A stretch of 29,203 bases of DNA from Escherichia phage ESSI2_ev239, in the sequence record NC_049392.1. One strand, written 5' to 3'. Made by a program: the position numbers and the translations under genes. Below are positions 1 to 29,203 of the stretch, piece after piece (position 1 is the stretch's first letter; the number at the start of each line of letters is the position of its first letter). The notes under the pieces are model-generated. The model was not told where the DNA came from. It was given only the letters and a program-made list of their open reading frames with translations, and did not search any database.

Positions 1-123
1 ATCATTGCCAGCGTACCGCTGGCCTTATTGAGCAGACCGATCCAGTTAAAACTGAAATCACCCACATCTGCGCCCAGCACTACGGAATAAACCACCCCGT
101 TTTCATTCACCACACCGGTGCGG
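1..123. repeat. Direct repeat, copy A: identical to 5096-5218 (internal tail-fibre coding segment)
   Basis: Base-by-base comparison shows identity over 123 bp, then complete divergence at 124 versus 5219. The repeat runs into the window edge and may extend further left. Confidence 0.9.
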
Positions 124-152
124 TGTAGCGCCGTTTTCGTCACTTCCGCCAT
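1..152 (-). CDS. Tail-fibre paralogue, N-terminal fragment (ORF runs off the left edge); possible second fibre gene or recombination remnant
   Basis: Minus-strand ATG at 150-152 opens a frame reading MAEVTKTALH followed by [40 protein letters not shown], identical to residues ~63-102 of the 524-aa fibre. An in-frame stop lies upstream at about 204-206; no clear Shine-Dalgarno. Confidence 0.35.
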   Translation of the reverse strand, partial: MAEVTKTALHRTGVVNENGVVYSVVLGADVGDFSFNWIGLLNKASGTLAM

Positions 153-3829: not shown

Positions 3830-5403
3830 TATGCGAGTCTCACTATGTAGTTAAATGCAATGTTCTTAACGGTCGTTTCTGCGTTGCCCGACGCGGCGAC
3901 GGTAATGGTGTGACTGTGTGCGCCAATTGCTACGGTATGAGAGTGAGCGCCAATACCTACGGTGTGATTGTGTGCGCCAATGGCTACAGTGTGCGCGTGG
4001 TTTCCCGCCGAACTGGTGGCGGCTCGCCCCTGATCGCTACGTGGTACCCCCCAGTCACTACCACCTGATTGCACGTTCCCGCCATAACCAATGGTGTGCG
4101 TATGCGCTCCCGTGGTATTTGTCGTTTTCGTGCCATAGTCAAACGTGCTCGCCGTTTTAGTACCGTAATCAAAGGATGATGTTGGTTTTGTCCCCAGATC
4201 GGTACTGGATGCACTGGCTGTATGGTCATGAGATTTATTGCCATCATCTTCATAGGAGAGAACTGCGCGACCGTCTGGCTTTCCTTTGATTGTCTGGCGG
4301 CGCATGTCAGTAATAACACCCGATGGATACGCAGCAGCCAGCAATGGATATGCCGCCGTATTAAAAGACTGCCCCTGCATAATTGCCCATCCAGTAGGTG
4401 GGATATCCGTTGGCCATGGAAGCGGCACACCAACCGGCAGAACGTCACTGCGACTTAAAACGGCCAGTTCACCCAGATCCAGACTTTTTCTTGCTTTTAC
4501 CTTATCGTTAACATCAGCAAGGTTTGCATCCTTACGCAAAAAATCGCTGCTGGCCTGCTGTTCTCCCAGGCTACCTTTTGGCCGTAAATCCGTGATGTTG
4601 CCATCCACATCAATGCTGGCCACAGCAAACACATAATGCTGAACCCCGTTCTGAACATAATCAGCAAGATTTGCTGCCACCGTGATTTTGCTCTGCACAT
4701 TCCAGACACTGGTCAGCATCCCTGTCCAGCACACATCCAGCCAGACTTTTACCGGCTTTGCCGTCACCGTAATATTCTGATTCGCAGCCAGTGACGCACG
4801 AAGTCCAGCCACATACCCCGTGCCTTTCGTGACAAAAAACTGATTTCCGGTTTTGGCTACCAGATACCCGTTACCAAAAAACGCCGCCGCGCCATAAATA
4901 TCCATATTTTCCAGGCGCTGGCGCTCATCCATTCCGGCCATACGCGCAGTAAAATCAATCTGCCAGGTTTCAGCGGGTGTATTAATCCCGGTTTCCGTCT
5001 GTGCGCCGTTGTACTCCATCAGAAACGAGCGGGTCAGCACGTTCCCCTGTTGCCCTTCTTTTGTTTTCAGTTTCTGCTGTGATGGTGCATGGACAATCAT
5101 TGCCAGCGTACCGCTGGCCTTATTGAGCAGACCGATCCAGTTAAAACTGAAATCACCCACATCTGCGCCCAGCACTACGGAATAAACCACCCCGTTTTCA
5201 TTCACCACACCGGTGCGGGTAACAGATTGCCGGTGAACAATCTGTGCTGTCGGGGGCAACGCTTCATTGCGGTCAACAGGTGTATCCGGGTTTAAATCCG
5301 GCACACTGGCAAAAACAAATTCGTCCAGTAGTACCGGTTCACCCGTTGCGCCCTGCTGTGCTTTCCAGTTTTCAAACGCCAGTGTGATGGCTGTCTGTGA
5401 CAT
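3829..5403 (-). CDS. Tail fibre protein with His-x-His repeat tip
   Basis: 524 aa; conserved N-terminal attachment region; C-terminal repeats FDYGTKT and GAHxHTV(A/G)IGAH resemble HxH metal-binding tips of T4 gp37-type fibres. Followed immediately by Tfa. Confidence 0.85.
5096..5218. repeat. Direct repeat, copy B (identical to 1-123)
   Basis: See copy A; lies within codons ~62-102 of the tail fibre gene. Confidence 0.9.
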
Positions 5404-14533: not shown

Positions 14534-15247
14534 TCAAACTCCTGTAGACTCTTTTTTCAGCGCCCGCAGACGCGCAGCAATACGCTGCAACATCGTGCCA
14601 ACACCACATTTAGGGTCGAATCCCTTCGCCTGCTCCAGCAATTCCTTCGCCCGGAGCAATACTTCCCTGTCTTCCGTTGCCGCTGCGCGTGGCTCTCCGT
14701 TTTCATCGCGTAGCAGGTGCAGACCGGCAAACTTCAGGTATTTGGCCTTAATGACCTCATACACATTCCAGTGCTGCGTCACGTTTTCCAGCGTACGGCC
14801 AAAATACGGCTCCACATCATGCCCCTGCACGGCTTCCGCTTCCGCCCAGGACAACACCGTATCCGCCACAAACACCGGGAACGTACTGCCGAACGCGGCC
14901 GGGGTTTCCTGTCCCCGCTGGATTGCCACATCCGCCCAGTCCAGCGCCTGGTCAAACTGGCCTGTATCAAACAGCCAGACGACACACCAGGCAAAAACAG
15001 GATTCTGTTGCACACTGTCACCTTCCAGCCAGGATTGCGCGGTTGGCATCCAGCGCGGTAACAGCACATCACGCTTAAACTCCATGCGCTCAGCGCGGCT
15101 TTCAATCGCTGCGGCAGCGGCGACATCTTTCTCCAGCGCGACAATCTGAATATGCAGGCTGGTTTCCGTGTCCAGAGACTGCTGCTGTCGCAGTAACCGC
15201 TCCGCTTCAATTCGTGCGCTGTGGCGCTGTGCCGGTGACAGTTGCAT
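14534..15247 (-). CDS. M: Terminase small/endonuclease subunit (P2 gpM family)
   Basis: 237 aa; N-terminal SPAQRH motif and position after the capsid gene match P2 gpM. Confidence 0.8.
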   Translation of the reverse strand: MQLSPAQRHSARIEAERLLRQQQSLDTETSLHIQIVALEKDVAAAAAIESRAERMEFKRDVLLPRWMPTAQSWLEGDSVQQNPVFAWCVVWLFDTGQFDQALDWADVAIQRGQETPAAFGSTFPVFVADTVLSWAEAEAVQGHDVEPYFGRTLENVTQHWNVYEVIKAKYLKFAGLHLLRDENGEPRAAATEDREVLLRAKELLEQAKGFDPKCGVGTMLQRIAARLRALKKESTGV

Positions 15248-15257
15248 TAAATCCCCC

Positions 15258-16286
15258 TTACTCCCCTGCCGGAGGCGCGACCGGTGCCCCGATAGTTACC
15301 GCACTTTCATCAAATGCGGCGTACAGTTCCGGATACTCAACCGCATAACCTTCGTTACGCAGGTATTTGTTTTCATACTGCTTGCGGTCTTCCACAAACT
15401 CCGCCTTGCGCTGGCGCGTGCCGCGCTGGGTGTAGATGTGCAGGTTTGGCAGTGTCGTAACAATCATGCGTTTGCCCGGCATAAACGGCGGTACGTAAGC
15501 CGTGCGACCGGCGATGCTGTCAGACAGTAATTGCGCAGCGATCTTCTCCGTGGGTTTGTCTGCTTTCTGATACAGACGGAACGACTCCGCCGCGACCAGA
15601 TCAGCGCCGACCAGAACCACCAGACGCGGGTCATTACGGAACTGTGCCGGGATTTTGGTATTGATGAGATCGGAAGCCATTGCATCCAGCGACACGTAAT
15701 CGCCTTTCCCGTCACCGTCAAGCACCACCGCATCAGTGATGATCTGCTGGCCGTCCTTCCACTCTTTGACGATCTGATGCCAGCCCTTGTTCACATCCTC
15801 GCCGTTCGGGTTGGTTTCCGCGTTCGTGGTCTCGGCCACTTTGGTACCGTTAAAGCCGATACGCAGCATATCCAGCGCAAACGCCTGATTGGTGAACTCC
15901 TGAACACGCTGGAAAAACTCGTTTTCATCGCCGGCGTTCGCCCAGACAGAAAGCAACTGCCAGGTGAGTGCGGCGCATGAGTCGGTCTCGACCAGACTGT
16001 AATCATTACCACTCACGCCCACTTTCTTACGGAAGCGGCCATCCAGTACACGCCCGGTATACAGGCCAGAGCTGCCAACCGGAACCACCTGCCCCTGCAG
16101 CTGATCGACATCGGCAACGGTGATCAGATTCAGGAAATCAGACTGCTCCATCAGCGCATTGCGCAGCTGGGTTTCTTTGGGGTCGGTGAGTGCAAACCAG
16201 CGTTCGCTGTCGGTCGCCCCGTAGGATTCACGCAGCCCGGTGTGATACTGAAGCAGAAACTCACGGGCTTTCGCATTTAATTGCAT
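15258..16286 (-). CDS. N: Major capsid protein (P2 gpN family)
   Basis: 342 aa, typical gpN size, flanked by O and M in the canonical O-N-M-L order. Confidence 0.85.
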   Translation of the reverse strand: MQLNAKAREFLLQYHTGLRESYGATDSERWFALTDPKETQLRNALMEQSDFLNLITVADVDQLQGQVVPVGSSGLYTGRVLDGRFRKKVGVSGNDYSLVETDSCAALTWQLLSVWANAGDENEFFQRVQEFTNQAFALDMLRIGFNGTKVAETTNAETNPNGEDVNKGWHQIVKEWKDGQQIITDAVVLDGDGKGDYVSLDAMASDLINTKIPAQFRNDPRLVVLVGADLVAAESFRLYQKADKPTEKIAAQLLSDSIAGRTAYVPPFMPGKRMIVTTLPNLHIYTQRGTRQRKAEFVEDRKQYENKYLRNEGYAVEYPELYAAFDESAVTIGAPVAPPAGE

Positions 16287-16320
16287 ATTCTTTTTCCTTA
16301 AAGAAAAGTAGTGTTATCCC

Positions 16321-17160
16321 TTACAGGAAATTGAAGCCTTTTTTGCCCTTGCTGAATTTCTTGTCCGGCAGTTGAGTAACTTTGTTATTCAGCTTGCTGA
16401 AGTTTTTCACCAGCTCCGGCAGGTTCCCCACCAGACGCGCAAAATCTTCGGTGTCCACTACTTCCTTCACGGTGTCCACATCGTCCTGCACATCAGATAC
16501 CGCTTCTTCCGCCTCACCCAGACGGGTTTCAATAGCAGATACGCGCTTATCAATGGCATCCAGCGCTTCAGCCAGCGCCTGTAAGGCATCAGACTGTGAA
16601 GGTTCCTGCTCCGGGGTCTGCTCCGGTTCTTCGATACTGAAAAAATGGCGCCAGCCCTTTTTCGCTGTCTTTGACATTCCCTTTTCCTTTTTAAATTCCC
16701 TGACTTCATCAAACGCCAGCGGCTTGTATGGTCCGATGCGTTTTCCCCTGGTGCGGCTGAAACGTAGCCGTGTGGTGCTTACCCCGGCCGGACTGTCAGT
16801 AATGGCCAGCCCCTCAAGATAGGTTTTCCCGGTATTTCTGAAATTCCCGTCCGGTGTAAACTCCGGTGATAAAAATAAAAGCTGCCCCTTCGCATTCGCC
16901 TGAAGCAACGCTATAGCCGGACAGAGTCGGGCGTATAAACGAAGAATACCTTCATCATCCCGCTCGGCTTTTACTTCCAGCACTTCCCCCATATTCCCGA
17001 AATTGCGGGTATGTTCCGGCCATAACAGCGCGGTATATAAATTGGGGTCATATAATTCAGCGGCATCAAGTAACCATTGTTCTTCAATGGTTCTTTTATC
17101 GACCGTTTCACCCGCAGTGGCGATACAAATCCAGTTTGTTGCCAGTTGTGAACCTGACAT
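16321..17160 (-). CDS. O: Capsid scaffolding protein (P2 gpO family)
   Basis: Track ORF extends to 17250; preferred start is Met 31 (MSGSQLATNW) preceded by GGAGG, giving about 279 aa. Acidic coiled-coil C-terminus typical of gpO. Confidence 0.8.
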   Translation of the reverse strand: MSGSQLATNWICIATAGETVDKRTIEEQWLLDAAELYDPNLYTALLWPEHTRNFGNMGEVLEVKAERDDEGILRLYARLCPAIALLQANAKGQLLFLSPEFTPDGNFRNTGKTYLEGLAITDSPAGVSTTRLRFSRTRGKRIGPYKPLAFDEVREFKKEKGMSKTAKKGWRHFFSIEEPEQTPEQEPSQSDALQALAEALDAIDKRVSAIETRLGEAEEAVSDVQDDVDTVKEVVDTEDFARLVGNLPELVKNFSKLNNKVTQLPDKKFSKGKKGFNFL

Positions 17161-17330
17161 ATTGCCTCCGTTCATTCTGCGAGGCTCAGTATCACCAATA
17201 AAATACACCCACGCATTCCAATTATTTCGGTGAAATTCGGATATAAGCAATAACCGAACTCAGCAGAATTAATTTTCAAAAATCGCGGCTGAATTGCTGA
17301 ATAATTCGCTTATTAATAAACAGATGAATT

Positions 17331-19133
17331 ATGGCAAGGAAGCCAATGGCAAAATACAGTGAAGAACTAAAAGGAGTGGCAAGGGCGCTATACCTGAAGC
17401 GCTATACACCGCAGGAAATTGCCAGCGAACTTAACTTACCCAACCGGCGAATTGTTTATTACTGGGCGGAGAAATATTGCTGGGCGGAACTGCTCAGTCA
17501 TGAATCCACGGAAGACGCGCTGAATCGCCGCGTGCAGTCGCTGACGCTGCGAGAGGGAAAATCAGAGCTGGAGCTACGCGAGCTGGACAGCCTCGTAGCC
17601 CATCTGGTGAAACTCCGTGCGCAGCATAATAAGCATCAGGAAAAGCTGGCCGAAATTAAACACCGTGGCGGCGAAGATGGAGCTGCACCGCGCCAGTCTG
17701 GTGATGGGGATAAATCGGGTAAACGCGGAAAATACAAAAAGAACGATATCAGCAAACTTACTCAGGAGGATTTTGACGCATTCGCCGCAGAGCATTTCTT
17801 CGGCTATCAAAAACATCTGCGAGCCAATCTTGGCCAGCAGGTCAGAAATATACTCAAAAGCCGCCAGATTGGCGCTACCTGGTATTTTTCGATAGAAGCC
17901 TTTGAAAGTGCGGTTATGACAGGCGATCCGCAAATTTTTCTCTCTGCATCCAAAGCCCAGGCGGAAGTCTTTCGCAGCTACATCGTCAACATCGCAGAGC
18001 AGTATTTTGGCGTGGAACTCACCGGCAACCCCATCCGTCTGTCCAACGGCGCGGAGCTGCGCTTCCTGTCCACCAACAAAAATACCGCACAGTCCTATAA
18101 CGGCCATCTGTACTGTGATGAATATTTCTGGGTTCCGAACTTCGCCAAACTGAATGAAGTGGCCAGCGCAATGGCCACGATTGATAAATGGCGCACCACC
18201 TACTTTTCCACGCCAAGCAGCAAGACCCACCAGGCGTACCCGTTCTGGACAGGCGAGGAATGGAAGCGCGGCGACAAAAAGCGCGCACGAACAGTATTCC
18301 CGACCGATAAAGAGCTGCGCGACGGTGGGCGGCTTTGTCCTGACGGCCAGTGGCGTTACATCATTACGATGGAAGACGCTATCGCCGGTGGCTTTAACCT
18401 GGCCAGCATCGAGAAGCTACGCAACCGCTACAACCGCGACACGTTCAACATGCTCTATATGTGCATATTCGTGGACAGTAAAGACAGCGTATTTTCGTTC
18501 TCCCGCGTCGAAAAATGCTGTGTCGATCCGGATACGTGGGAAGACCATGACGAAGACCTTCCCCGCCCGTTCGGTAACAGAGAGGTATGGGCGGGCTATG
18601 ACCCCGCCCGCAGCGGCGATACGTCCACCTTTGTGATTATCGCGCCGCCGATACTGGCCGTCGAAAAGTTTCGCGTGCTGCGCGTTTTCCACTGGCAGGG
18701 GATGAACTGGAAATGGCAGGCGGCACAGATTAAGAAGCTGTTTGGCCAGTACAACATGACCTACATCGGTATTGATATCACCGGGCTGGGAAGCGGTGTC
18801 TTTGAAGACGTTCAGCACTTTGCCATGCGCCAGGCAGTCGCGATCCGCTACGGCGTCGAGACCAAAAATCGTCTGGTGATGAAGATGATTGACGTAATCG
18901 AAGACGGCCGCGTGGAATGGGATAAGGAGAAGACCGAAATCGCCGCCAGCTTTATGACCATCCGGCGCACGTCCACGGCCAGCGGCAACGCGATGACGTT
19001 CGTCGCCGACCGCACAGCAGAAACAGGCCACGCAGACAGTTTCTGGGCTATCGCCCACGCTATCGACAATGAACCACTCAATTACGGAAACCAGCGTAAA
19101 TCCCGCTGGGGAAACTTAGGGAAAGCAGCATGA
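17331..19133 (+). CDS. P: Terminase large (ATPase) subunit (P2 gpP family)
   Basis: 600 aa, divergent from O across a ~170 bp AT-rich intergenic region, as P and O are arranged in P2; followed by the portal gene with overlapping stop/start. Confidence 0.85.
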   Translation: MARKPMAKYSEELKGVARALYLKRYTPQEIASELNLPNRRIVYYWAEKYCWAELLSHESTEDALNRRVQSLTLREGKSELELRELDSLVAHLVKLRAQHNKHQEKLAEIKHRGGEDGAAPRQSGDGDKSGKRGKYKKNDISKLTQEDFDAFAAEHFFGYQKHLRANLGQQVRNILKSRQIGATWYFSIEAFESAVMTGDPQIFLSASKAQAEVFRSYIVNIAEQYFGVELTGNPIRLSNGAELRFLSTNKNTAQSYNGHLYCDEYFWVPNFAKLNEVASAMATIDKWRTTYFSTPSSKTHQAYPFWTGEEWKRGDKKRARTVFPTDKELRDGGRLCPDGQWRYIITMEDAIAGGFNLASIEKLRNRYNRDTFNMLYMCIFVDSKDSVFSFSRVEKCCVDPDTWEDHDEDLPRPFGNREVWAGYDPARSGDTSTFVIIAPPILAVEKFRVLRVFHWQGMNWKWQAAQIKKLFGQYNMTYIGIDITGLGSGVFEDVQHFAMRQAVAIRYGVETKNRLVMKMIDVIEDGRVEWDKEKTEIAASFMTIRRTSTASGNAMTFVADRTAETGHADSFWAIAHAIDNEPLNYGNQRKSRWGNLGKAA

Positions 19134-20149
19134 AGAAACGCAAATTCCGGGAGCGCCGCAGCGCCCCAAAACCGCGTCATATGAGCCTTATCAGCCTGGG
19201 TAAGCCTGAACCCATTCTGACCACCGGCACAAACTATACCGATGTGTGGTACGACAACGAGGCAGAGCACTGGACGCTGCCGATTGACCGGCTGGCACTG
19301 GCGCAACTGGTGAACCTCAATGCACAGCACGGCGGCGTGCTGTATGCCCGTCGCAATATGGTGTCGGCAAACTATGAAAATGGCGGGCTTACGCATGAAC
19401 AGCTGGGGGCGGCAGTATTCGACTGGCTAACGTTCGGTGATGTGGCCATTCTGAAGGTGCGCAATGGATGGGGGGATGTGGTGGCGCTGTATCCGCTGCC
19501 GGCGCTGTACACCCGGCAGCGCAAAACCGGAGAATTCGTCGTGCTGCAACAGGCTGAACCAATGATTTACCCCCCTGAAGATATCATCTTCCTGAAGCAG
19601 TACGACCCGCAGCAGGCGGTTTATGGCCTCCCGGACTACATCAGCGGCATTCATTCCGCACTGCTGAACGGTGAGGCAACTATCTTCCGCCGCCGTTACT
19701 ACCACAACGGCGCTCACACCGGGGGCATTATCTATTCCAATGACCCGAACATGACCGACGAAGTGGAAGAAGAGATTATCAGCAAGCTGGAACAGTCGAA
19801 GGGGATCGGGAATTTCAGCACCATGTTCGTGAATATTCCCAAAGGCGATCCGGACGGCATCAAATTTATTCCGATTGGCGATATCAGCGCCAAAGATGAG
19901 TTTCAGAACATCAAGAGCATCAGCGCCCAGGACGTTCTGACCGCGCACCGCTTTCCGGCCGGACTGGCGGGGATTATCCCGACGAACGGCGCAGTAATGG
20001 GAGATATTGAGAAAGCGGCTAAAACCTACCGTAAAGCTGAAATTTTACCCGTTCAGCGTATGTTTGCGGCAGCGATTGCTGGCCAGAGCGATATTCCACA
20101 GCATTTGTACCTGAATTTCCTGAAAGACAGCGAGCTGGAAGGTGATTAA
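19130..20149 (+). CDS. Q: Portal protein (P2 gpQ family)
   Basis: 339 aa; overlaps the terminase stop by 4 nt; P-then-Q order as in the P2 PQ operon. Confidence 0.85.
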   Translation: MKKRKFRERRSAPKPRHMSLISLGKPEPILTTGTNYTDVWYDNEAEHWTLPIDRLALAQLVNLNAQHGGVLYARRNMVSANYENGGLTHEQLGAAVFDWLTFGDVAILKVRNGWGDVVALYPLPALYTRQRKTGEFVVLQQAEPMIYPPEDIIFLKQYDPQQAVYGLPDYISGIHSALLNGEATIFRRRYYHNGAHTGGIIYSNDPNMTDEVEEEIISKLEQSKGIGNFSTMFVNIPKGDPDGIKFIPIGDISAKDEFQNIKSISAQDVLTAHRFPAGLAGIIPTNGAVMGDIEKAAKTYRKAEILPVQRMFAAAIAGQSDIPQHLYLNFLKDSELEGD

Positions 20150-20202
20150 TGCCACTAAAAAGGCTAAAATATAGGCGTTTTCAGGGCCATGGAGCGCGGA
20201 AT

Positions 20203-20472
20203 ATGCGGGTACTAAAAGTAAAATGTCCGGAGTGCGGGGCAAAAGCGATCATCAAAAAGACGAATCCCAAGCACCCCCATATTTCAGATATTTACTGCGC
20301 CTGTTCTGACGTGGAATGCGGTCATACCTTCGTGCTTAACCTGACGTTCTCCCACACATTAAGCCCCAGTGCCAAGACCGGGGACTTGATGGTGCAGACG
20401 ATCCTCAATTCCTTCTCGCCAGAACAGAAGCAAATGACGCTGGATTTATTGAAAGCCGGAATGGCTGCATAG
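20203..20472 (+). CDS. ogr: Ogr/Delta-family zinc-finger late transcription activator
   Basis: Track ORF starts at 20149; preferred start is MRVLKVK, preceded by GGAG. Cysteine spacing C-x2-C-x22-C-x4-C (CPEC ... CSDVEC) matches the Ogr/Delta zinc finger. Confidence 0.7.
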   Translation: MRVLKVKCPECGAKAIIKKTNPKHPHISDIYCACSDVECGHTFVLNLTFSHTLSPSAKTGDLMVQTILNSFSPEQKQMTLDLLKAGMAA

Positions 20473-21155: not shown

Positions 21156-23882
21156 TTATTTTTCCCTACGGAATATCCAGCAACGGAATGTATCCGGCAT
21201 GCGTTGCATTTCACCTTTGCCACGGTTATGGCGTTCACTCACTGCGCTGCGCGTGGTTTTGGTGTCGATAAAACGGCGCTCGTTGCCGTTTTTAAGCAGC
21301 TTTTTAATCTCGGTTAAAGTAAACGGAATACGCTGCCGGTGGGCGGCGGCGACTTCTTCCAGATGGTTAAAATTGACCGCTATTTCACCTTCATCCGATG
21401 AATGGTTAATACCATGCGGTGCCAGCTCGTCGAGGTAGTCAAACAGCTCCCAAAACTCCTGCACCAGAGGGTGATCCTTTTTAAGCGCCTGACACCGTTC
21501 CACGGCCAGCGCGGTGATGGCCTCGCGGGTCTTCTCAATACGCTCCACCGGCACCGGCACAACCAACGCCAGCGCTTCCAGCAAACCGACCAGTTGCGCA
21601 TGGTTTTTGGCGATACGGATATGGCGGATATTGGTATTAGACTCCAGCTCGCCACGGGCGCGTTCGTAGCCCTGGCCAAACACCTTCATGATTTCTTTTT
21701 CACGCATAGTGGCCAGCAGGGTGAAACCAGATACCTGGCTGACTGGGATCTGCTCAAGGCGTTCAGCGGCATAGCGGGTCTGAATAGACTGGCCACGCTT
21801 GTCGGTATAGATGTGGATGATACGCTCCAGAAACGCCTTACTGCCGTCTGTGTCGGCGTTCTGCGCTATCACTATGCTGCCCCTGAATGGCGGCTCGTAG
21901 GTCTCGTTATTGTTCGATTTGATACCCACAGCGCGGGAGGCGCGACCGTTATACAGTGATTTCAGCTCGTCCCAGTCAAAAGCGCGTTGTTTAGCGTTAT
22001 CGGTAGTACGGTCGCCCTCAATCAGCACAACCGGCAAATTACCGACCTGCGCAAAGTTACGGCCACGCGCTGCGGCTGTCGATTTGGAAGGATCAAACCC
22101 TTCATACTCTTCACGGCCGGCGAGTTTCCACAGAAATTCAATCAGCGTGGATTTACCTGTTCCCGGTTCCCCCACGATTTCAAGAAACGGGAAAGACTTG
22201 TCACGCTCGCGGATTTGCTCAGCAAACAGCGACCCCAGCCAGAACGCCAGAGCCACATACCCTTTTTCACCAAAAGCCGTCCAGATATCGTCTACCCAGC
22301 CCGTAGTAAATTCGTTCAGCTTCGGATTCAGATCCAGCGACGGCGTGAGGCTCAGGCTCTTGACGCTGGCGCTGTTGATTTCGAAATAATCTTCATCGTT
22401 CATTTCGTACAGCCGGCCATCACAAACAGCCACGCGATTAAACAGCCATGCAGCATAATCCTTGTTATAGCCAATGAAATTTTGCGTCTTAACCTCTTTG
22501 ATTTCAGGGAGGCGCATCTGGATGAACTTATCCAGCTGTTTGGTACTGCCGGTGTACACCGCACCTTTGGCGATATGCAGCAGACGTTTTTTAAACTCGG
22601 CGGAACTGGTTAACTGGTTGGCCGTGAAAGTATCTTTCACGGCTGGCCGGTTCGGCATATTGACCTTCACGTAATACCAGGACTCGTCTGTAGGTTCAGA
22701 CCGCTGGAAGTAAAGCGGCGTCAGCCAGCAGTTGGCGATTTCAGTCACGCCACCTGACTCTTTAACCGCCCGTTCTTTGGCCTCCCACTCCATCACCACT
22801 TCAGTACCGGTATTGGTGATGCGCTCATAAGCTCGCATGTACCTGTCCAGATCCAGCTCAAACCAGTACATGCGGGAGTTATGCTCAAAATAGAACGAAT
22901 GCCACTCGTTATGCTGATGCATGAGCAACGCTTTTTCAGTCGGGCTTTTCGCCAGAAGGATATCGCCATAGTAGCGATAATTTTTGATGTCCGATTTGCT
23001 GAACCGCCCACGTAAAAGCAGGTCATTCCAGTCCAGACTGGAGGATGATTTCACCGGCTGCGCCGCGCGAACTTTCCAGCCGGCTTCCTCGCTACGGGCA
23101 GCAAAGGCCAGCGTGTGCTTAGTGCCAGCTCTGTCACCATCAAACGCCCATATCAGGCGTGGGCGGGGTTTCTCGCCCAGCTCTTTAGCCAGGGTATCCA
23201 GCGCCACCAGTGGGTAATTATTGCTGCTCAGTGTGGCCACAGCGGGTAAACCCGCCTGGCACAGGCTCAGCGCGTTGAAGATGCCCTCAGTGATCCAGAT
23301 TTCATTCACTTCCAGCAGGTTCACAGACGGCGGAACCCACCAGTGGCCAACGTAGCTGCCTCTGATGTTCGCTTTCTGCTTACCAAAGCGCTGCGGCTGG
23401 TCAATGATGCGCTCCCATGTCGCACCGCAGGTCAGCTTAAATCTGACGGTTGCCGACCCCATACCATCTTTGGCAAACGCCCCCTGGGTAAAGCAACCTT
23501 TCAGCGGTTCAGTATCCAGCCCTCTCGCCTCGCGCAGATACGCCTCAGCTACCGCATGAGGGTTATCTTCTGTGGCCTGGTACCGTTTTGACCAGTCTTC
23601 AAAAATATCCGGATACAGCTCTTTGACAACGACCTGATGGCCGCAGTTGTTTTCGCGGCCGCACTTCAGGATCCAGGGCTTTTCTATGCTGGTAAATAAT
23701 TCACGTTTGTGGCATTTAGGGCAAACGCCCTGTTGCAGATATTTATCCCGTTCCTTGAATTCAAAATCCTGAACGAGTCGGCACACAACGTCCTGCTGTA
23801 TTGTGGCATTCATAATTAATCCAGATGTAGAAAGGTGTGAAAGGCAAAAACTATATTCGGTATTGTTTGTTATATCGCTCAT
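21156..23882 (-). CDS. Replication primase-helicase (zinc-finger + Toprim primase + P-loop NTPase; P4 alpha-like architecture)
   Basis: 908 aa with CPKCH...CGRENNCGH zinc motif, Toprim-like EGIFNA and AFDGDRAG, and Walker A GEPGTGKS. Start may be the internal MNATIQ (about 23813). Confidence 0.75.
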   Translation of the reverse strand: MSDITNNTEYSFCLSHLSTSGLIMNATIQQDVVCRLVQDFEFKERDKYLQQGVCPKCHKRELFTSIEKPWILKCGRENNCGHQVVVKELYPDIFEDWSKRYQATEDNPHAVAEAYLREARGLDTEPLKGCFTQGAFAKDGMGSATVRFKLTCGATWERIIDQPQRFGKQKANIRGSYVGHWWVPPSVNLLEVNEIWITEGIFNALSLCQAGLPAVATLSSNNYPLVALDTLAKELGEKPRPRLIWAFDGDRAGTKHTLAFAARSEEAGWKVRAAQPVKSSSSLDWNDLLLRGRFSKSDIKNYRYYGDILLAKSPTEKALLMHQHNEWHSFYFEHNSRMYWFELDLDRYMRAYERITNTGTEVVMEWEAKERAVKESGGVTEIANCWLTPLYFQRSEPTDESWYYVKVNMPNRPAVKDTFTANQLTSSAEFKKRLLHIAKGAVYTGSTKQLDKFIQMRLPEIKEVKTQNFIGYNKDYAAWLFNRVAVCDGRLYEMNDEDYFEINSASVKSLSLTPSLDLNPKLNEFTTGWVDDIWTAFGEKGYVALAFWLGSLFAEQIRERDKSFPFLEIVGEPGTGKSTLIEFLWKLAGREEYEGFDPSKSTAAARGRNFAQVGNLPVVLIEGDRTTDNAKQRAFDWDELKSLYNGRASRAVGIKSNNNETYEPPFRGSIVIAQNADTDGSKAFLERIIHIYTDKRGQSIQTRYAAERLEQIPVSQVSGFTLLATMREKEIMKVFGQGYERARGELESNTNIRHIRIAKNHAQLVGLLEALALVVPVPVERIEKTREAITALAVERCQALKKDHPLVQEFWELFDYLDELAPHGINHSSDEGEIAVNFNHLEEVAAAHRQRIPFTLTEIKKLLKNGNERRFIDTKTTRSAVSERHNRGKGEMQRMPDTFRCWIFRREK

Positions 23883-25345: not shown

Positions 25346-25666
25346 ATGGCACATATGTCAAGTATGGGTGAGAAGTTTCGTTTAATCCGCAAGGCTGAGG
25401 GAATGACCCGCCAAGAGTTTGCTGATGCAGTTGGCTTACCTTATGGAACGCTAACGAACTACGAAACAAAGGGTTTCCAAGTAACAGAAGGCGCTCTTAT
25501 GAAGATAACCAAAAACCCAAGATTCAAAAAATACGCTTACTGGCTTTCAACGGACGAAACCATGCCGGAGGTAGGTCAAATATCCCCGGCTCTCTCTCTT
25601 GATGGGTCAGAGCAACCGGAGGATATTCCGGATTTAACCCCCAAAACAGCAAAATCACACCGTTAA
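25346..25666 (+). CDS. C: Immunity repressor (P2 C-like, helix-turn-helix)
   Basis: Track ORF starts at 25013; preferred start MAHMSSMGEKF follows GGAGG at about 10 nt. HTH segment TRQEFADAVGLPYGTLTNYE; about 106 aa, directly upstream of int. Confidence 0.7.
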   Translation: MAHMSSMGEKFRLIRKAEGMTRQEFADAVGLPYGTLTNYETKGFQVTEGALMKITKNPRFKKYAYWLSTDETMPEVGQISPALSLDGSEQPEDIPDLTPKTAKSHR

Positions 25667-25750
25667 AAGCTGAAAATTGGTTAGACCTGTATTTTGAATT
25701 TGCTGACTGCCTGTGGTCGCAGGCCGGAAGCTACATCGGAGGGCTTCGCT

Positions 25751-26734
25751 ATGGCGATTAAGAAGCTCGATGATGGACGTTATGAACTGGACACAAGAGC
25801 GGGCGGACGCACCAGTAAGCGGATCCGCAAAATATTTAACAGAAGGGCTGATGCTGTTGCGTATGAACGCTACATGCTGGGTAAGTTTCAGCGCAAGGAA
25901 TGGGATCCGGCAGCACAGATTGACAGGCGCACGCTGGACGATATCAGAGAATTGTGGTGGCTCTACCACGGCCAGACGCAGAAGAATGGCGAGATTGAAA
26001 ACAGGCATCTCATCAAAACCATTACCGCGCTGGATAATCCGCAGGTAGGCGAGGTTAACAAACGAATGCTGATAGTCCACCGCAGCCGCAGGCTGGCGCA
26101 GGGAATAAGCGCATCCACGGTCAACCGCGATATTTACCGGCTGTCCGGCATGTTCAGCGCACTGATCAAGCTGGATGAGTTTGAGGGGGAAAACCCGCTG
26201 CGTGGTCTGCCTCCCCTGAAAGAGAAAAATCCCGGCATGACCTTTCTCACAAAACCGGAAATTAGCCGCCTGCTGGACACGCTGACGGGCGATTACCGAC
26301 TGGTTGCCCTGCTGTGCCTCAGCACAGGCGGACGCTGGGGAGAGGTCAGTACGCTGACGGAATCGCAGATTATGCACGGCCGTGTCGTATTCCTGGAAAC
26401 GAAGAACGGCAAAAAGCGCGTGGTTCCCATCTCTTCCGAACTGGAAGACGAAATTATGGCCAACGCCAGCGCGGGGCTGTTCCGGGTGGACTATGAAAAC
26501 TTCTGCCGGAAGCTGCGGAAGGTCAAGCCAGACCTGCCACGCGGTCAGGCCACCCACATTCTGCGACACACGTTCGCCAGCCACTTTATGATGAACGGCG
26601 GGAATATCATTGCGCTTCAGCAGATACTTGGCCATGCCAGCATTCAGCAGACGATGGCGTATGCGCATCTGGCACCGGATTATCTCCAGAACGCTATCGC
26701 ACTGAATCCGCTGAAAGGGGGGCTGGGAGTCTGA
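25751..26734 (+). CDS. int: Tyrosine integrase (P2 Int-like)
   Basis: Start MAIKKLDDGRYE, preceded by GGAGGG, matches the P2 Int N-terminus; catalytic region HILRHTFASHFMMNGGNIIALQQILGH...MAYAHL carries the R-H-R-Y signature. Confidence 0.9.
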   Translation: MAIKKLDDGRYELDTRAGGRTSKRIRKIFNRRADAVAYERYMLGKFQRKEWDPAAQIDRRTLDDIRELWWLYHGQTQKNGEIENRHLIKTITALDNPQVGEVNKRMLIVHRSRRLAQGISASTVNRDIYRLSGMFSALIKLDEFEGENPLRGLPPLKEKNPGMTFLTKPEISRLLDTLTGDYRLVALLCLSTGGRWGEVSTLTESQIMHGRVVFLETKNGKKRVVPISSELEDEIMANASAGLFRVDYENFCRKLRKVKPDLPRGQATHILRHTFASHFMMNGGNIIALQQILGHASIQQTMAYAHLAPDYLQNAIALNPLKGGLGV

Positions 26735-26739
26735 TAATT

Positions 26740-26970
26740 CCGTCCACATGTGGACGCATTTTTCCGTTTCGGGACTGCCTGAAACCGCCTGAAACGGAAG
26801 TGTGGACAGTGTGGACGGTAAAATTGGCCTGAAAAGTTTGTAAGTCGTTGAAAAAAAAGACCCCCACATCATGTGGGGGAAGACAGGGATGGTGTTGTTT
26901 TAAAAAGCATAAATCATTGATATTGTTGTATTTATATTGAAATTTCCGTCCACAAAACGTCCACATCGAC
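26740..26970. other. attP attachment site: Int arm-type repeats flanking a hairpin core
   Basis: Left arm GTCCACATGTGGAC (about 26742-26755) and TGTGGACAGTGTGGACGG (about 26801-26818); core hairpin cccccacat-cat-gtggggg preceded by A8 (about 26851-26879); AT-rich spacer; right arm CCGTCCACAAAACGTCCACA (about 26946-26967) in opposite orientation. Confidence 0.6.
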
Positions 26971-27189
26971 CGCAAGCCCCAGTTTCTGGGGCTTTATCAA
27001 AAAAACGTGACGTCTATCACGGTAATGGCGAACTGCAAGAAGTTCGGTTGCCAAATGGCTGATATCGCTTTCTAAATCAATTCAATCTCATATGACATAA
27101 CTACGTTGTGAAACAGGAACTACTGAATGCTGATTCACCATAGATGAAAAAAATGCTAATATCCACAAAAAGGCTAAGCGTAAAATAAA

Positions 27190-28293
27190 ATGAAATATAT
27201 TTTTGAATACGGATTTTATCTCAGCATACTTATAGCGACAATATATGTCACTTCTAAGTTTTTGGGTATTACACCTGCAAAACATAAATACGCCTCACTT
27301 GATGGCTTACGTGGAATTTGTGCAGCAATGGTTGCTGTATTCCATCTTTACTGGAGAGCCGGAGGAGAATCAGATATATACTGGTCTCTTGAGTACATTA
27401 CACTCAGCAATGTAAAACGCGCCATATATCTAACAGGTGAGTTATCTGTTGGTGTATTTTTTATGCTGTCTGCTTTTTTATTTTTCAAAAAGGCACTGGC
27501 GAACTCCTTCGATGTAAAAAGTTTTGCAATTTCACGATTCATGCGAATTTACCCACCTGTAGTGGTTCTTTTATTTATAATATATATTGCAACATTTATC
27601 ATGAATCCGGATGACCATACTCCAGTATCGCAATGGTTTATACCTTCATTACCATTTATATTCAATCCACCTGGAGCTAACATCAATGGTGTATCGCTCC
27701 AGATTGCCACATCTGGTGTGTTCTGGACGTTAGTCTGGGAATTACGCCTATACCTTGCAATTCCATTTTTATATCTGATAATGAAAAACATAAAATATAA
27801 AGAAGCATTTGTTATTTTTTTAATGGGATGTATTTTGTTATTCAAGTATTTTATAAATAATGAACAATACCTGAGTTATATAATGTATTTCCTTGCCGGA
27901 TTTCTTGTCGCTACAATCAAGAGTAACAAGCGCCCATCAGATATAATCTGCGTTTTATTATTATTCGCAGCTATATATTTCACTCGACATGCTTACAACA
28001 CTACAACTCCGCTTTATATGTTTGTTATTTTCTACACAATAAAGTGCGGATGTGATTACTTTGGCTTACTTACATCCCTGCCTGTAACTATGCTGGGAAC
28101 CTGCAGTTTCTCCCTTTATTTAGTTCATGGGATAACTCAGACAGTATCTAAACATTATTTATATAGCACAGGAAACTATGTTTGGCAGATTTGTGCAATT
28201 ATTGCGGCAGGTATCATTGCGCCGGTTATGTACAAATATGTCGAAAGTCGCAGCATCATACATAAGCCTCCTCACCTTCAGATTGCAAAGTAG
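27190..28293 (+). CDS. Acyltransferase family 3 integral membrane protein (candidate O-antigen O-acetyltransferase, lysogenic-conversion moron)
   Basis: 367 aa, about 10 hydrophobic segments, N-terminal signature LDGLRGICAAMVAVFH typical of the Oac/OafA-type acyltransferase-3 family; markedly AT-rich compared with the phage backbone. Confidence 0.75.
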   Translation: MKYIFEYGFYLSILIATIYVTSKFLGITPAKHKYASLDGLRGICAAMVAVFHLYWRAGGESDIYWSLEYITLSNVKRAIYLTGELSVGVFFMLSAFLFFKKALANSFDVKSFAISRFMRIYPPVVVLLFIIYIATFIMNPDDHTPVSQWFIPSLPFIFNPPGANINGVSLQIATSGVFWTLVWELRLYLAIPFLYLIMKNIKYKEAFVIFLMGCILLFKYFINNEQYLSYIMYFLAGFLVATIKSNKRPSDIICVLLLFAAIYFTRHAYNTTTPLYMFVIFYTIKCGCDYFGLLTSLPVTMLGTCSFSLYLVHGITQTVSKHYLYSTGNYVWQICAIIAAGIIAPVMYKYVESRSIIHKPPHLQIAK

Positions 28294-28299
28294 AACATT

Positions 28300-28322
28300 T
28301 GCGCCCCTGAACAGGGGCGTTA
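28300..28322 (+). terminator. Possible intrinsic terminator after the acyltransferase gene
   Basis: GC-rich hairpin gcgcccctg-aa-caggggcg just after the stop; weak U-tract. Confidence 0.35.
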
Positions 28323-28387
28323 TCCCACCGCGCTGTTAAAATTTTGTTTCGTCTCACCCCGCATTTTTAAGTTGCCCATCGGAAAAA

Positions 28388-28653
28388 CGTCACAACCATC
28401 ACACATCAAAGAAACACCACCTATCCACATGATTATCATGAATAAAATTTGTGACGGTAAAACCATCACAAAACGTAACACAAACCGTCACACTCAATAA
28501 ATTCAGCGAGTTATAAAACAGAGCTGTGATGTTTTAAGGCCGTCACACTGTGATGCTCTTGTGATAGTTTTGTGATGGTTTTCAATATATGAATTTACTT
28601 ATACATATCATATAGATAAATGATATTTTTAAAATCTGTGATGTTTGTGACGG
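28388..28653. repeat. Iteron-like array of about 11 TGTGA(C/T)GG motifs in both orientations (candidate replication origin or regulator binding array)
   Basis: Motif copies at about 28388, 28396, 28450, 28463, 28485, 28524, 28540, 28548, 28571, 28636 and 28646, several as inverted pairs; AT-rich block (tatatgaatttacttatacatatcatatagataaatgatattttt) lies inside; no ORF of 60 aa or more. Confidence 0.5.
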
Positions 28654-29126
28654 TTTTCCGATGCTCCCCCTCAATTTTTGAAAAAATAAGAAGTGGTCAG
28701 AAATCACCCTGATTTGTTGGTGAGTTTGTTTCTCTCTCTGTTACTGATTTGGTTACTGGTGGCAGCATGTGTGCACAGGGATGGGAGCAGACGGATCTGT
28801 GCAAGGTATTTCAGTTGTGCCGGTTCGTACAGTTCCCCGTAAACCCGTGCCAGCTGCGGCTTTCTGTTTTTAAACGCTTACGAGAGCCGGCGCCGGCCGT
28901 TACGTAAAAAATCACGTAATCACAACTCATCCCGCATGGCTCAGGGCTTTAGCTCCTGTTACGCCCTGCCTTCCATCGCACAAAAACTGAAATCTTTGAA
29001 ATCTGTTTCACACATTTCAGTTTGAGATCTGGTCTCAAAGCCCCAGCGCTGGCGCGGTCTGGCGGTATGTTTTGTACCCCCGGAAAAACTGAAATCATTC
29101 TCAACACGAAAACCGCAGGCGGGGGC

Positions 29127-29203
29127 CTGTCTCTTATACACATCTCCGAGCCCACGAGACTCCTGAGCATCTCGTATGCCGTCTTCTGCTTGAAAAAAAA
29201 AAA
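29127..29203. other. Sequencing adapter contamination (Nextera read-through adapter with 8-nt index, P7 tail and poly-A)
   Basis: CTGTCTCTTATACACATCTCCGAGCCCACGAGAC + TCCTGAGC + ATCTCGTATGCCGTCTTCTGCTTG + A11 is the standard Nextera i7 adapter structure; not biological sequence. Confidence 0.9.

Follow-up and report, generated by a model that had tools for sequence, protein, structure and literature searches.

Genome organisation

The window analysed here, the entire 29,203-nt record of Escherichia phage ESSI2_ev239, is a complete genome of a P2-like temperate phage (Peduoviridae, ESSI-2/Quadragintavirus-like) written in virion order. It is collinear with Cronobacter phage ESSI-2 (Peduoviridae), similarly oriented and approximately 76% identical, and its tail half exhibits 88.5-89.2% identity to Escherichia phages ESSI2_ev129, ev015 and ev040. 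Genes for the baseplate, tail fibre and tail are followed by lysis genes, by head genes that include the small terminase subunit and by the large terminase subunit. Thereafter come the portal, an Ogr-type zinc finger, a primase-type replication protein, regulatory genes, the integrase and an acyltransferase. The principal features are as follows.

14534-15247, minus strand: small terminase subunit (PHROGs; Pfam PF05944 Phage_term_smal)
17331-19133, plus strand: large terminase subunit (PHROGs; Pfam PF06056 gpP-like, PF03237/PF17289)
19130-20149: portal protein
20149-20472: Ogr-type zinc finger protein
21156-23882, minus strand: primase-type replication protein of 908 aa (phrog_1139)
25694-26734, plus strand: integrase (Pfam Int_N, Phage_integrase)
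about 26852, plus strand: approximate attP boundary, placed where homology to fieF-flanked prophages starts (feature span with the integrase, 25694-26860)
27190-28293, plus strand: Acyl_transf_3, O-antigen-acetylase-like acyltransferase, between attP and the proposed cos site

The P2-type packaging genes span 14534-19133, where the terminase subunits flank the capsid and scaffold genes. Both subunits of a P2-type terminase, gpP-like (large) and gpM-like (small), were identified using Pfam and PHROGs. An ORF of 405 aa without a family match (25655-26872, minus strand) lies antisense to the integrase gene and is almost certainly a shadow ORF. The acyltransferase is likely a lysogenic-conversion moron. 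Its region has a low G+C content (0.35-0.42 over 27001-29000), and an identical copy of the protein is found in many enterobacterial prophages beside fieF/pfkA. On a contig of GCA_041297695.1 (3582-6104) the identical acyltransferase is immediately preceded by an integrase, in the place of the host gene fieF of the other assemblies, an arrangement suggestive of an excised or circular phage, of tandem copies or of another integration module. A non-coding stretch of 833 nt separates the acyltransferase from the adapter described below.

Adapter sequence at the right end

The last 77 nt of the window (29127-29203) are synthetic and can be read directly as a 34-nt adapter, an 8-nt index, the 24-nt complement of P7 and a run of 11 A residues.

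29127-29160, plus strand: Nextera mosaic end and complement of the Read-2 primer site (Read-1 read-through adapter), CTGTCTCTTATACACATCTCCGAGCCCACGAGAC, exact at 34 of 34 positions
29161-29168, plus strand: 8-nt i7 sample index, TCCTGAGC, filling the NNNNNNNN slot that the constant adapter parts enclose
29169-29192, plus strand: complement of the P7 flow-cell sequence, ATCTCGTATGCCGTCTTCTGCTTG, exact at 24 of 24 positions
29193-29203, plus strand: A11 run, read directly and interpreted as base calls beyond the end of the library molecule

Four-colour Illumina instruments call poly-A past the end of a library molecule, and TCCTGAGC is presumably Illumina index N704. The phage sequence closes with ...CCGCAGGCGGGGGC, after which adapter, index, P7 complement and the eleven A residues follow. 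The string CTGTCTCTTATACACATCTCCGAGCCCACGAGACNNNNNNNNATCTCGTATGCCGTCTTCTGCTTG, with the index in the variable slot, has been published for the trimming of Nextera 'Read 1' (PMC6843071), and the window tail equals it at all 58 fixed bases, a match that cannot be due to chance. The adapter lies in the read-through orientation at the tip of the contig. Elsewhere in the window, neither other 12-mers of the Nextera Read-1 adapter nor the Read-2/P5 adapter were found on either strand. An adapter string past the junction was likewise absent from all of approximately 30 related sequences, which run on with GGTGTAGCGCCGTTTT; relatives show GGTGTAGCGCC where the window has adapter, which is therefore without a counterpart in homologous natural sequence. 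The feature at 29127-29203 is an ordinary Nextera contamination artefact and not biology.

Two ORFs predicted at this end originate in the adapter.

28949-29170, minus strand: spurious ORF of 73 aa, whose start codon and first approximately 15 codons (MLRSLVGSEMCIRDR) are adapter-encoded (ORF list, translation)
28959-29141, minus strand: spurious ORF of 60 aa, starting in the adapter (MYKRQ...) (ORF list; analogous CDS in ev129)

An initial annotation, made from the sequence alone, had described the last 77 nt or so as Nextera adapter, index, P7 and poly-A matching a known synthetic sequence exactly. The coordinates and composition are confirmed to the base, and the published string bears out the match. 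The same annotation held that the two minus-strand ORFs are not genes, which agrees with the start of both within the adapter; no CDS is annotated in the interval homologous to 28949-29170 in RefSeq prophages of E. coli. Its advice to discard any annotation in the last 80 bp or so was right in direction and too narrow in extent, since the ORFs run approximately 180 nt beyond that limit, to 28949, into genuine non-coding cos-flanking DNA, and the left tip is affected also. This reach had been overlooked, together with the left-end artefact (1-123) and a probable base error at 29124.

Left end and base 29124

1-123, plus strand: chimeric duplication that repeats 5096-5218 (within the tail-fibre gene) exactly and is joined to the left cos end (BLAST self-match, 123/123)
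3-152, minus strand: spurious partial ORF running off the left contig end, a fusion of cos flank and duplicated tail-fibre fragment (translation)
29124, plus strand: G, against T in all of approximately 30 relatives; 3 nt ahead of the adapter junction

Apart from the pair 1-123 and 5096-5218, the window contains no long exact repeat. After the copy the window resumes the true left arm (TGTAGCGCC...), and relatives carry right-arm sequence to the left of GGTGCGGTGTAG, not a tail-fibre copy. The joint coincides with a 7-nt microhomology, GGTGCGG, at which window positions 117-123 equal G8-G14 of the cos sequence in the numbering given below. An overlap of 7 nt is too short for a mis-join in a k-mer graph, and a real chimeric molecule is therefore implied, which would most simply have arisen by PCR template switching onto a terminal fragment. 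From TGVVNENG onwards the ORF at 3-152 is identical to approximately residues 64-106 of the tail fibre. That the minus strand of 1-153 represents the start of a second tail-fibre gene or a host gene was considered and ruled out, as 1-123 is a copy of 5096-5218.

The G at 29124 was observed in none of the sequences compared: 10 prophages with the exact acyltransferase, 18 read-through IMG/VR contigs, three genome contigs and the E. coli prophage. IMG/VR contig 2718218027_000005 is identical to the window over 1,934 nt (27190-29123) and then has T. Illumina errors are known to include the substitution of T by G after GGC-rich sequence. An error in base calling or consensus at this thinly covered tip probably accounts for the G.

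The junction site in related phages and prophages

The site at which the contig ends is numbered G1 C2 A3 G4 G5 C6 G7 G8 G9 T10 G11 C12 G13 G14 T15 G16 T17 A18 G19 C20 G21 C22. The ends of five records fall within it as follows.

Window: on the right, phage sequence stops at C12 (29126); on the left, the chimera joint lies within G8-G14
ev015: on the right, the record ends at C12 (..GGGTGC); on the left, adapter is followed by G16 (GTAGCGCC)
ev040: internally, ..GGGTGC (C12) is followed by Nextera adapter and then by G14 (GTGTAGCGCC); on the left, the same junction
ev129: on the right, ..GCAGGCG (G7) is followed by adapter; on the left, adapter is followed by G16 (GTAGCGCC)
IMG/VR contig 2718218027_000005 (28,216 bp): on the right, ..GGGTGC (C12); on the left, G13 (GGTGTAGCGCC)

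Although identical to window 27190-29123 (100%), the IMG/VR contig shares only 96% identity on the left arm and is therefore a distinct phage. The ESSI-2 record starts with GCGGGTGCGGTGTAG and ends with ..GCAGGCGGGTGCGGTGTAG, and the window adapter begins inside the equivalent string. In the RefSeq record of P2 the 19-nt cos is written out at each end, a convention that the 15-nt repeat of ESSI-2 matches. The end point of the window is thereby shared with five other independent assemblies, namely ESSI-2, ev129, ev015, ev040 and the IMG/VR contig, and the three ev RefSeq records still carry Nextera adapter at the junction site. The two parts of the site that remain in the window are given below.

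29118-29126, plus strand: right-hand cos part, predicted nt 1-9, GGCGGGGGC (GGCGGGTGC in relatives), the last genuine phage sequence
124-131, plus strand: left-hand cos part, TGTAGCGC, predicted nt 12-19; genuine left arm from here at the latest

The left-hand part aligns to the start of the ESSI-2 record and to the left junctions of ev129/ev015, ev040 and contig 2718218027_000005.

The last genuine phage letters before the adapter (...GCAGGCGGGGGC) lie in a site that integrated or read-through relatives read continuously (...GCAGGCGGGTGCGGTGTAGCGCC...). In the E. coli prophage integrated in NZ_AP023286 the site reads ...ACGAAAACCGCAGGCGGGTGCGGTGTAGCGCCGTTTTCGTC..., in the order raiA, acyltransferase, site and baseplate gene, the last being the gene at the left end of the window; immediately before the acyltransferase come the host genes rluD, bamD and raiA. 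The site is equally continuous in 10 assemblies with the window's exact acyltransferase next to fieF/pfkA, in 18 of 19 IMG/VR contigs containing the flanking 22-mer and in three isolate genomes (Salmonella, Pseudocitrobacter and Erwinia), amounting to more than 30 integrated or metagenomic copies overall. It is accordingly terminal in virion-type assemblies and uninterrupted within integrated or metagenomic copies, and in lysogens it is adjoined by phage genes on both sides and not by host DNA.

The 22-mer replaced a 14-nt pattern (GAAAACCGCAGGCG) that had returned more than 120 matches in IMG/VR, mostly by chance. Comparison of the last 1.5 kb with phages yielded no match using megablast; blastn matches were weak, but pointed to the end of the ESSI-2 record. 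A scan for the site joined to adapter retrieved metagenome contig ERZ1036380 NODE-3221, rejected since it shares only 12 GC-rich nucleotides and the adapter and is otherwise unrelated; no instance of the pattern was found in IMG/VR. A lambda-like cos, suspected at first, was dropped given the prophage contexts.

Several elements flank the site on its right-arm side.

28982-29117, no strand assigned: conserved non-coding cos flank (repeat search; blocks kept in ESSI-2, ev129 and the E. coli prophage)
28982-28997 and 29084-29099: direct repeat AAAAACTGAAATC in two copies at a distance of 102 nt
28984-29001 and 29006-29023: 18-nt inverted repeat
29040-29055: GC palindrome, GCCCCAGCGCTGGCGC

The repeat blocks are retained in ESSI-2, the ev phages and E. 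coli prophages despite divergence of the flank, and may possibly represent candidate binding elements for terminase or a host factor. Conservation of the core itself was judged from ESSI-2 and the ev phages only, and a conservation profile across the site is partly circular, most of the sequences having been selected on the core 19-mer.

Calibration on known cos sites

Of 50,697 phage records, 41 contain the adapter 34-mer, 28 of them within approximately 120 nt of a record end. One such record, P2_2H4 (NC_049385), has as its cos the experimentally defined P2 19-mer, GGCGAGGCGGGGAAAGCAC. Its right end reads ...GGCGAGGCG and then CTGTCTCTTA, that is, cos nt 1-9 followed by adapter, and its left end reads ...AGATGTGTATAAGAGACAG and then GGGAAAGCACTGCGCGC, that is, adapter followed by cos nt 10-19. 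At the left end of the 186-like phage SW9, adapter is followed by GGAAAGCAT (nt 11-19). Nextera contigs of P2-type phages therefore stop approximately 9 nt into the cohesive end; here, the right arm ends at C12 and the left arm starts at G13/G14.

Because the adapter junction lies approximately 9 nt into the known cos of P2, the cohesive end of the present phage is predicted, by analogy with P2_2H4, to be G4-C22, a 19-nt 5' overhang of sequence GGCGGGTGCGGTGTAGCGC. In the register set by the adapter junction, a hand count gave 11 of 19 ungapped identities between the predicted and the P2 19-mer, a comparison too short for statistics; GGCG at the start and AGC.C at the end are among the matching positions. 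MAFFT prefers another register against the P2/186 19-mer, with a 5-nt shift on an AGGCGGG core. The 15-nt terminal repeat of ESSI-2 (G5-G19) does not coincide exactly with the predicted overhang. Relative to a 9-nt rule, the junction at the right end of ev129 is displaced inwards by 5 nt and two left-end junctions by 2-3 nt; the rule therefore gives the outermost junction and not every one.

The lambda-type phage Lambda_ev110 (LR597652) exhibits a spacing unlike that of the P2-type cases. Its right end (46571-46770) has lambda cos nt 1-4 (GGGC), T8 and the full P7/index/mosaic-end adapter, the T8 representing the same adapter and homopolymer pattern on the other strand, and the left end of the record begins with cos nt 10 (CCT).

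According to the authors of PhageTerm, Nextera data lose terminal sequence (PMC5557969), which fits a contig that stops approximately 10 nt short of the end of the overhang. It is possible, and held here with slightly less than even confidence, that adapter scars are non-random, the outermost Tn5 junction in P2-type phages lying approximately 9 nt into the 19-nt 5' overhang and mapping cos to within about 1 nt. On the same tentative reading, the junction would follow nt 9 on the right and phage sequence would resume at nt 10-11 on the left, with GGCGGGTGCGGTGTAGCGC as the cohesive end of the present phage. If true, adapter-tipped public contigs would map cos termini, contrary to the accepted view that tagmentation libraries hold no information on termini.

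Origin of the contig ends

The window very probably represents a whole P2-like genome assembled from linear packaged DNA, sequenced from an untrimmed Nextera library, with a contig that ends at cos. By analogy with P2, the contig end is regarded as the physical end of the genome, with approximately 10 nt of the overhang missing. The initial annotation had called this end technical and not a phage terminus. That part of its conclusion does not stand: the adapter is joined inside cos at the common end of five other assemblies, the site is internal in prophages, and P2_2H4 displays the same geometry at a known cos.

A linear cos-ended molecule would provide no genomic read past its terminus, and only artefactual reads could lengthen the contig tips. 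At the right tip these would be short-insert Read-1 reads running through into mosaic-end adapter, index, P7 and poly-A (29127-29203); at the left tip, a chimeric molecule would have contributed the 123 nt of tail-fibre gene through the 7-nt microhomology joint. The outermost Tn5 strand transfer on the strand bearing the 5' overhang may fall 9 nt from the recessed 3' end, and gap-filling from the natural 3' end would then copy those 9 nt together with the mosaic end and adapter. With no competing path, the assembler would append the read-through reads. The coverage, the insert sizes and a lack of reads across cos are deduced here from the assembled sequence.

Improbable, although the best surviving of the alternatives, is a break in circular or concatemeric DNA (a replicative form, or annealed cos) caused by a Tn5 hotspot at GGCGGGTGC or by a GC-rich palindromic region that is hard to sequence. 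The Tn5 target consensus favours G...C ends, such as those of the 9-bp interval GGCGGGTGC, and there is a GC palindrome 70 nt upstream. Nextera insertion bias is documented (PMC5418689). However, a hotspot in continuous DNA leaves spanning fragments, so that contigs would not stop there; isolate and metagenome assemblies, many of them presumably Illumina, read through the site; and the same behaviour is seen at a sequence-unrelated part of the P2 and 186 cos.

Even less probable, by a small degree, is the account implied by the initial annotation, in which the adapter became attached at an arbitrary assembly break (a coverage gap or random chimeric read) unrelated to the phage terminus. Adapter read-through can in principle join any contig tip, the adapter is internal in 13 of the 41 adapter-bearing phage records, and an unrelated high-GC metagenome contig ends in ..GCAGGCGGGGGC followed by adapter by chance alone. 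Against this, both tips of a 29-kb contig fall in one site of approximately 20 nt, for which the rough chance is (20/29000)^2, or about 5e-7. The recurrence of that site as the end of five other independent assemblies and a junction geometry that matches a phage with a known cos also oppose an arbitrary break.

The notion that the shared site is an attachment site (attP, or attL/attR of an excised prophage) and the contig a prophage cut at its integration boundaries, first suspected from the short, att-like direct repeat at both ends of the ESSI-2 record and in keeping with an integrase within 3 kb, can be dismissed with near certainty: integrated copies hold the site uninterrupted between acyltransferase and baseplate gene, the acyltransferase is immediately preceded by host genes (raiA, or fieF/pfkA), and homology to fieF-flanked prophages begins at window position 26852, which therefore places att approximately 2.27 kb before the junction.

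Consequences for the record and related records

Positions 29127-29203 and 1-116 (or 1-123) should be trimmed, the three spurious ORFs dropped and base 29124 treated as T. The trimmed unit genome, window 124-29126 plus GG, amounts to about 29,005 bp, and should be entered as a cos-ended unit of that length and not as an incomplete fragment. The conclusion of the initial annotation would leave the genome end undefined, whereas the adapter marks it. Adapter-tipped contig ends in cos phages may be read as evidence of physical termini.

Other phage genomes in RefSeq still contain Nextera adapter, located at the cos site or across it, some with adapter-encoded CDSs.

NC_049394 (ev129): adapter at 1-43 and 30879-30927
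NC_049395 (ev015): adapter at 1-48
NC_049393 (ev040): adapter at 29624-29665
NC_049385 (P2_2H4): adapter at both ends
NC_049459 (SW9): adapter at 1-30

The first codons (..DVYKRQ..) of ev129 CDS YP_009877565.1 (30741-30926) are adapter-encoded, and a CDS of P2_2H4 starts at nt 16, within the adapter.

Comparison with known systems

The artefact itself belongs to Nextera read-through contamination, the class removed by UniVec or NCBI FCS-adaptor, with the same mosaic-end/Read-2-primer complement, index, P7 complement and homopolymer, and with adapter-encoded ORF starts (EMCIRDR, YKRQ) here too. The adapter is identical to that of the usual case; only its point of attachment, inside the cos cohesive end, is noteworthy.

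ESSI-2 (Seongnamvirus) and ESSI2_ev129, ev015 and ev040 (Quadragintavirus) share gene order, orientation and terminal site with the present phage. They differ from it in the early/accessory region, where the integrase and moron set of the window are different. ESSI-2 and the ev phages possess a P2 A-like 'nicking at origin' protein where the window encodes the 908-aa primase-type protein, a difference that suggests a swap of an early-region module.

The cos sites of P2 and 186 (Peduoviridae), with 19-nt 5' cohesive ends GGCGAGGCGGGGAAAGCAC and GGCGTGGCGGGGAAAGCAT, respectively, have in common with the present site the P2-type terminase genes and a G-rich core. The cos of P2 adjoins the portal gene Q, whereas the site in the present phage has the acyltransferase, downstream of int/attP, on one side and the baseplate/tail operon on the other. 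The length and polarity of the overhang are predicted for the present phage and experimentally defined in P2.
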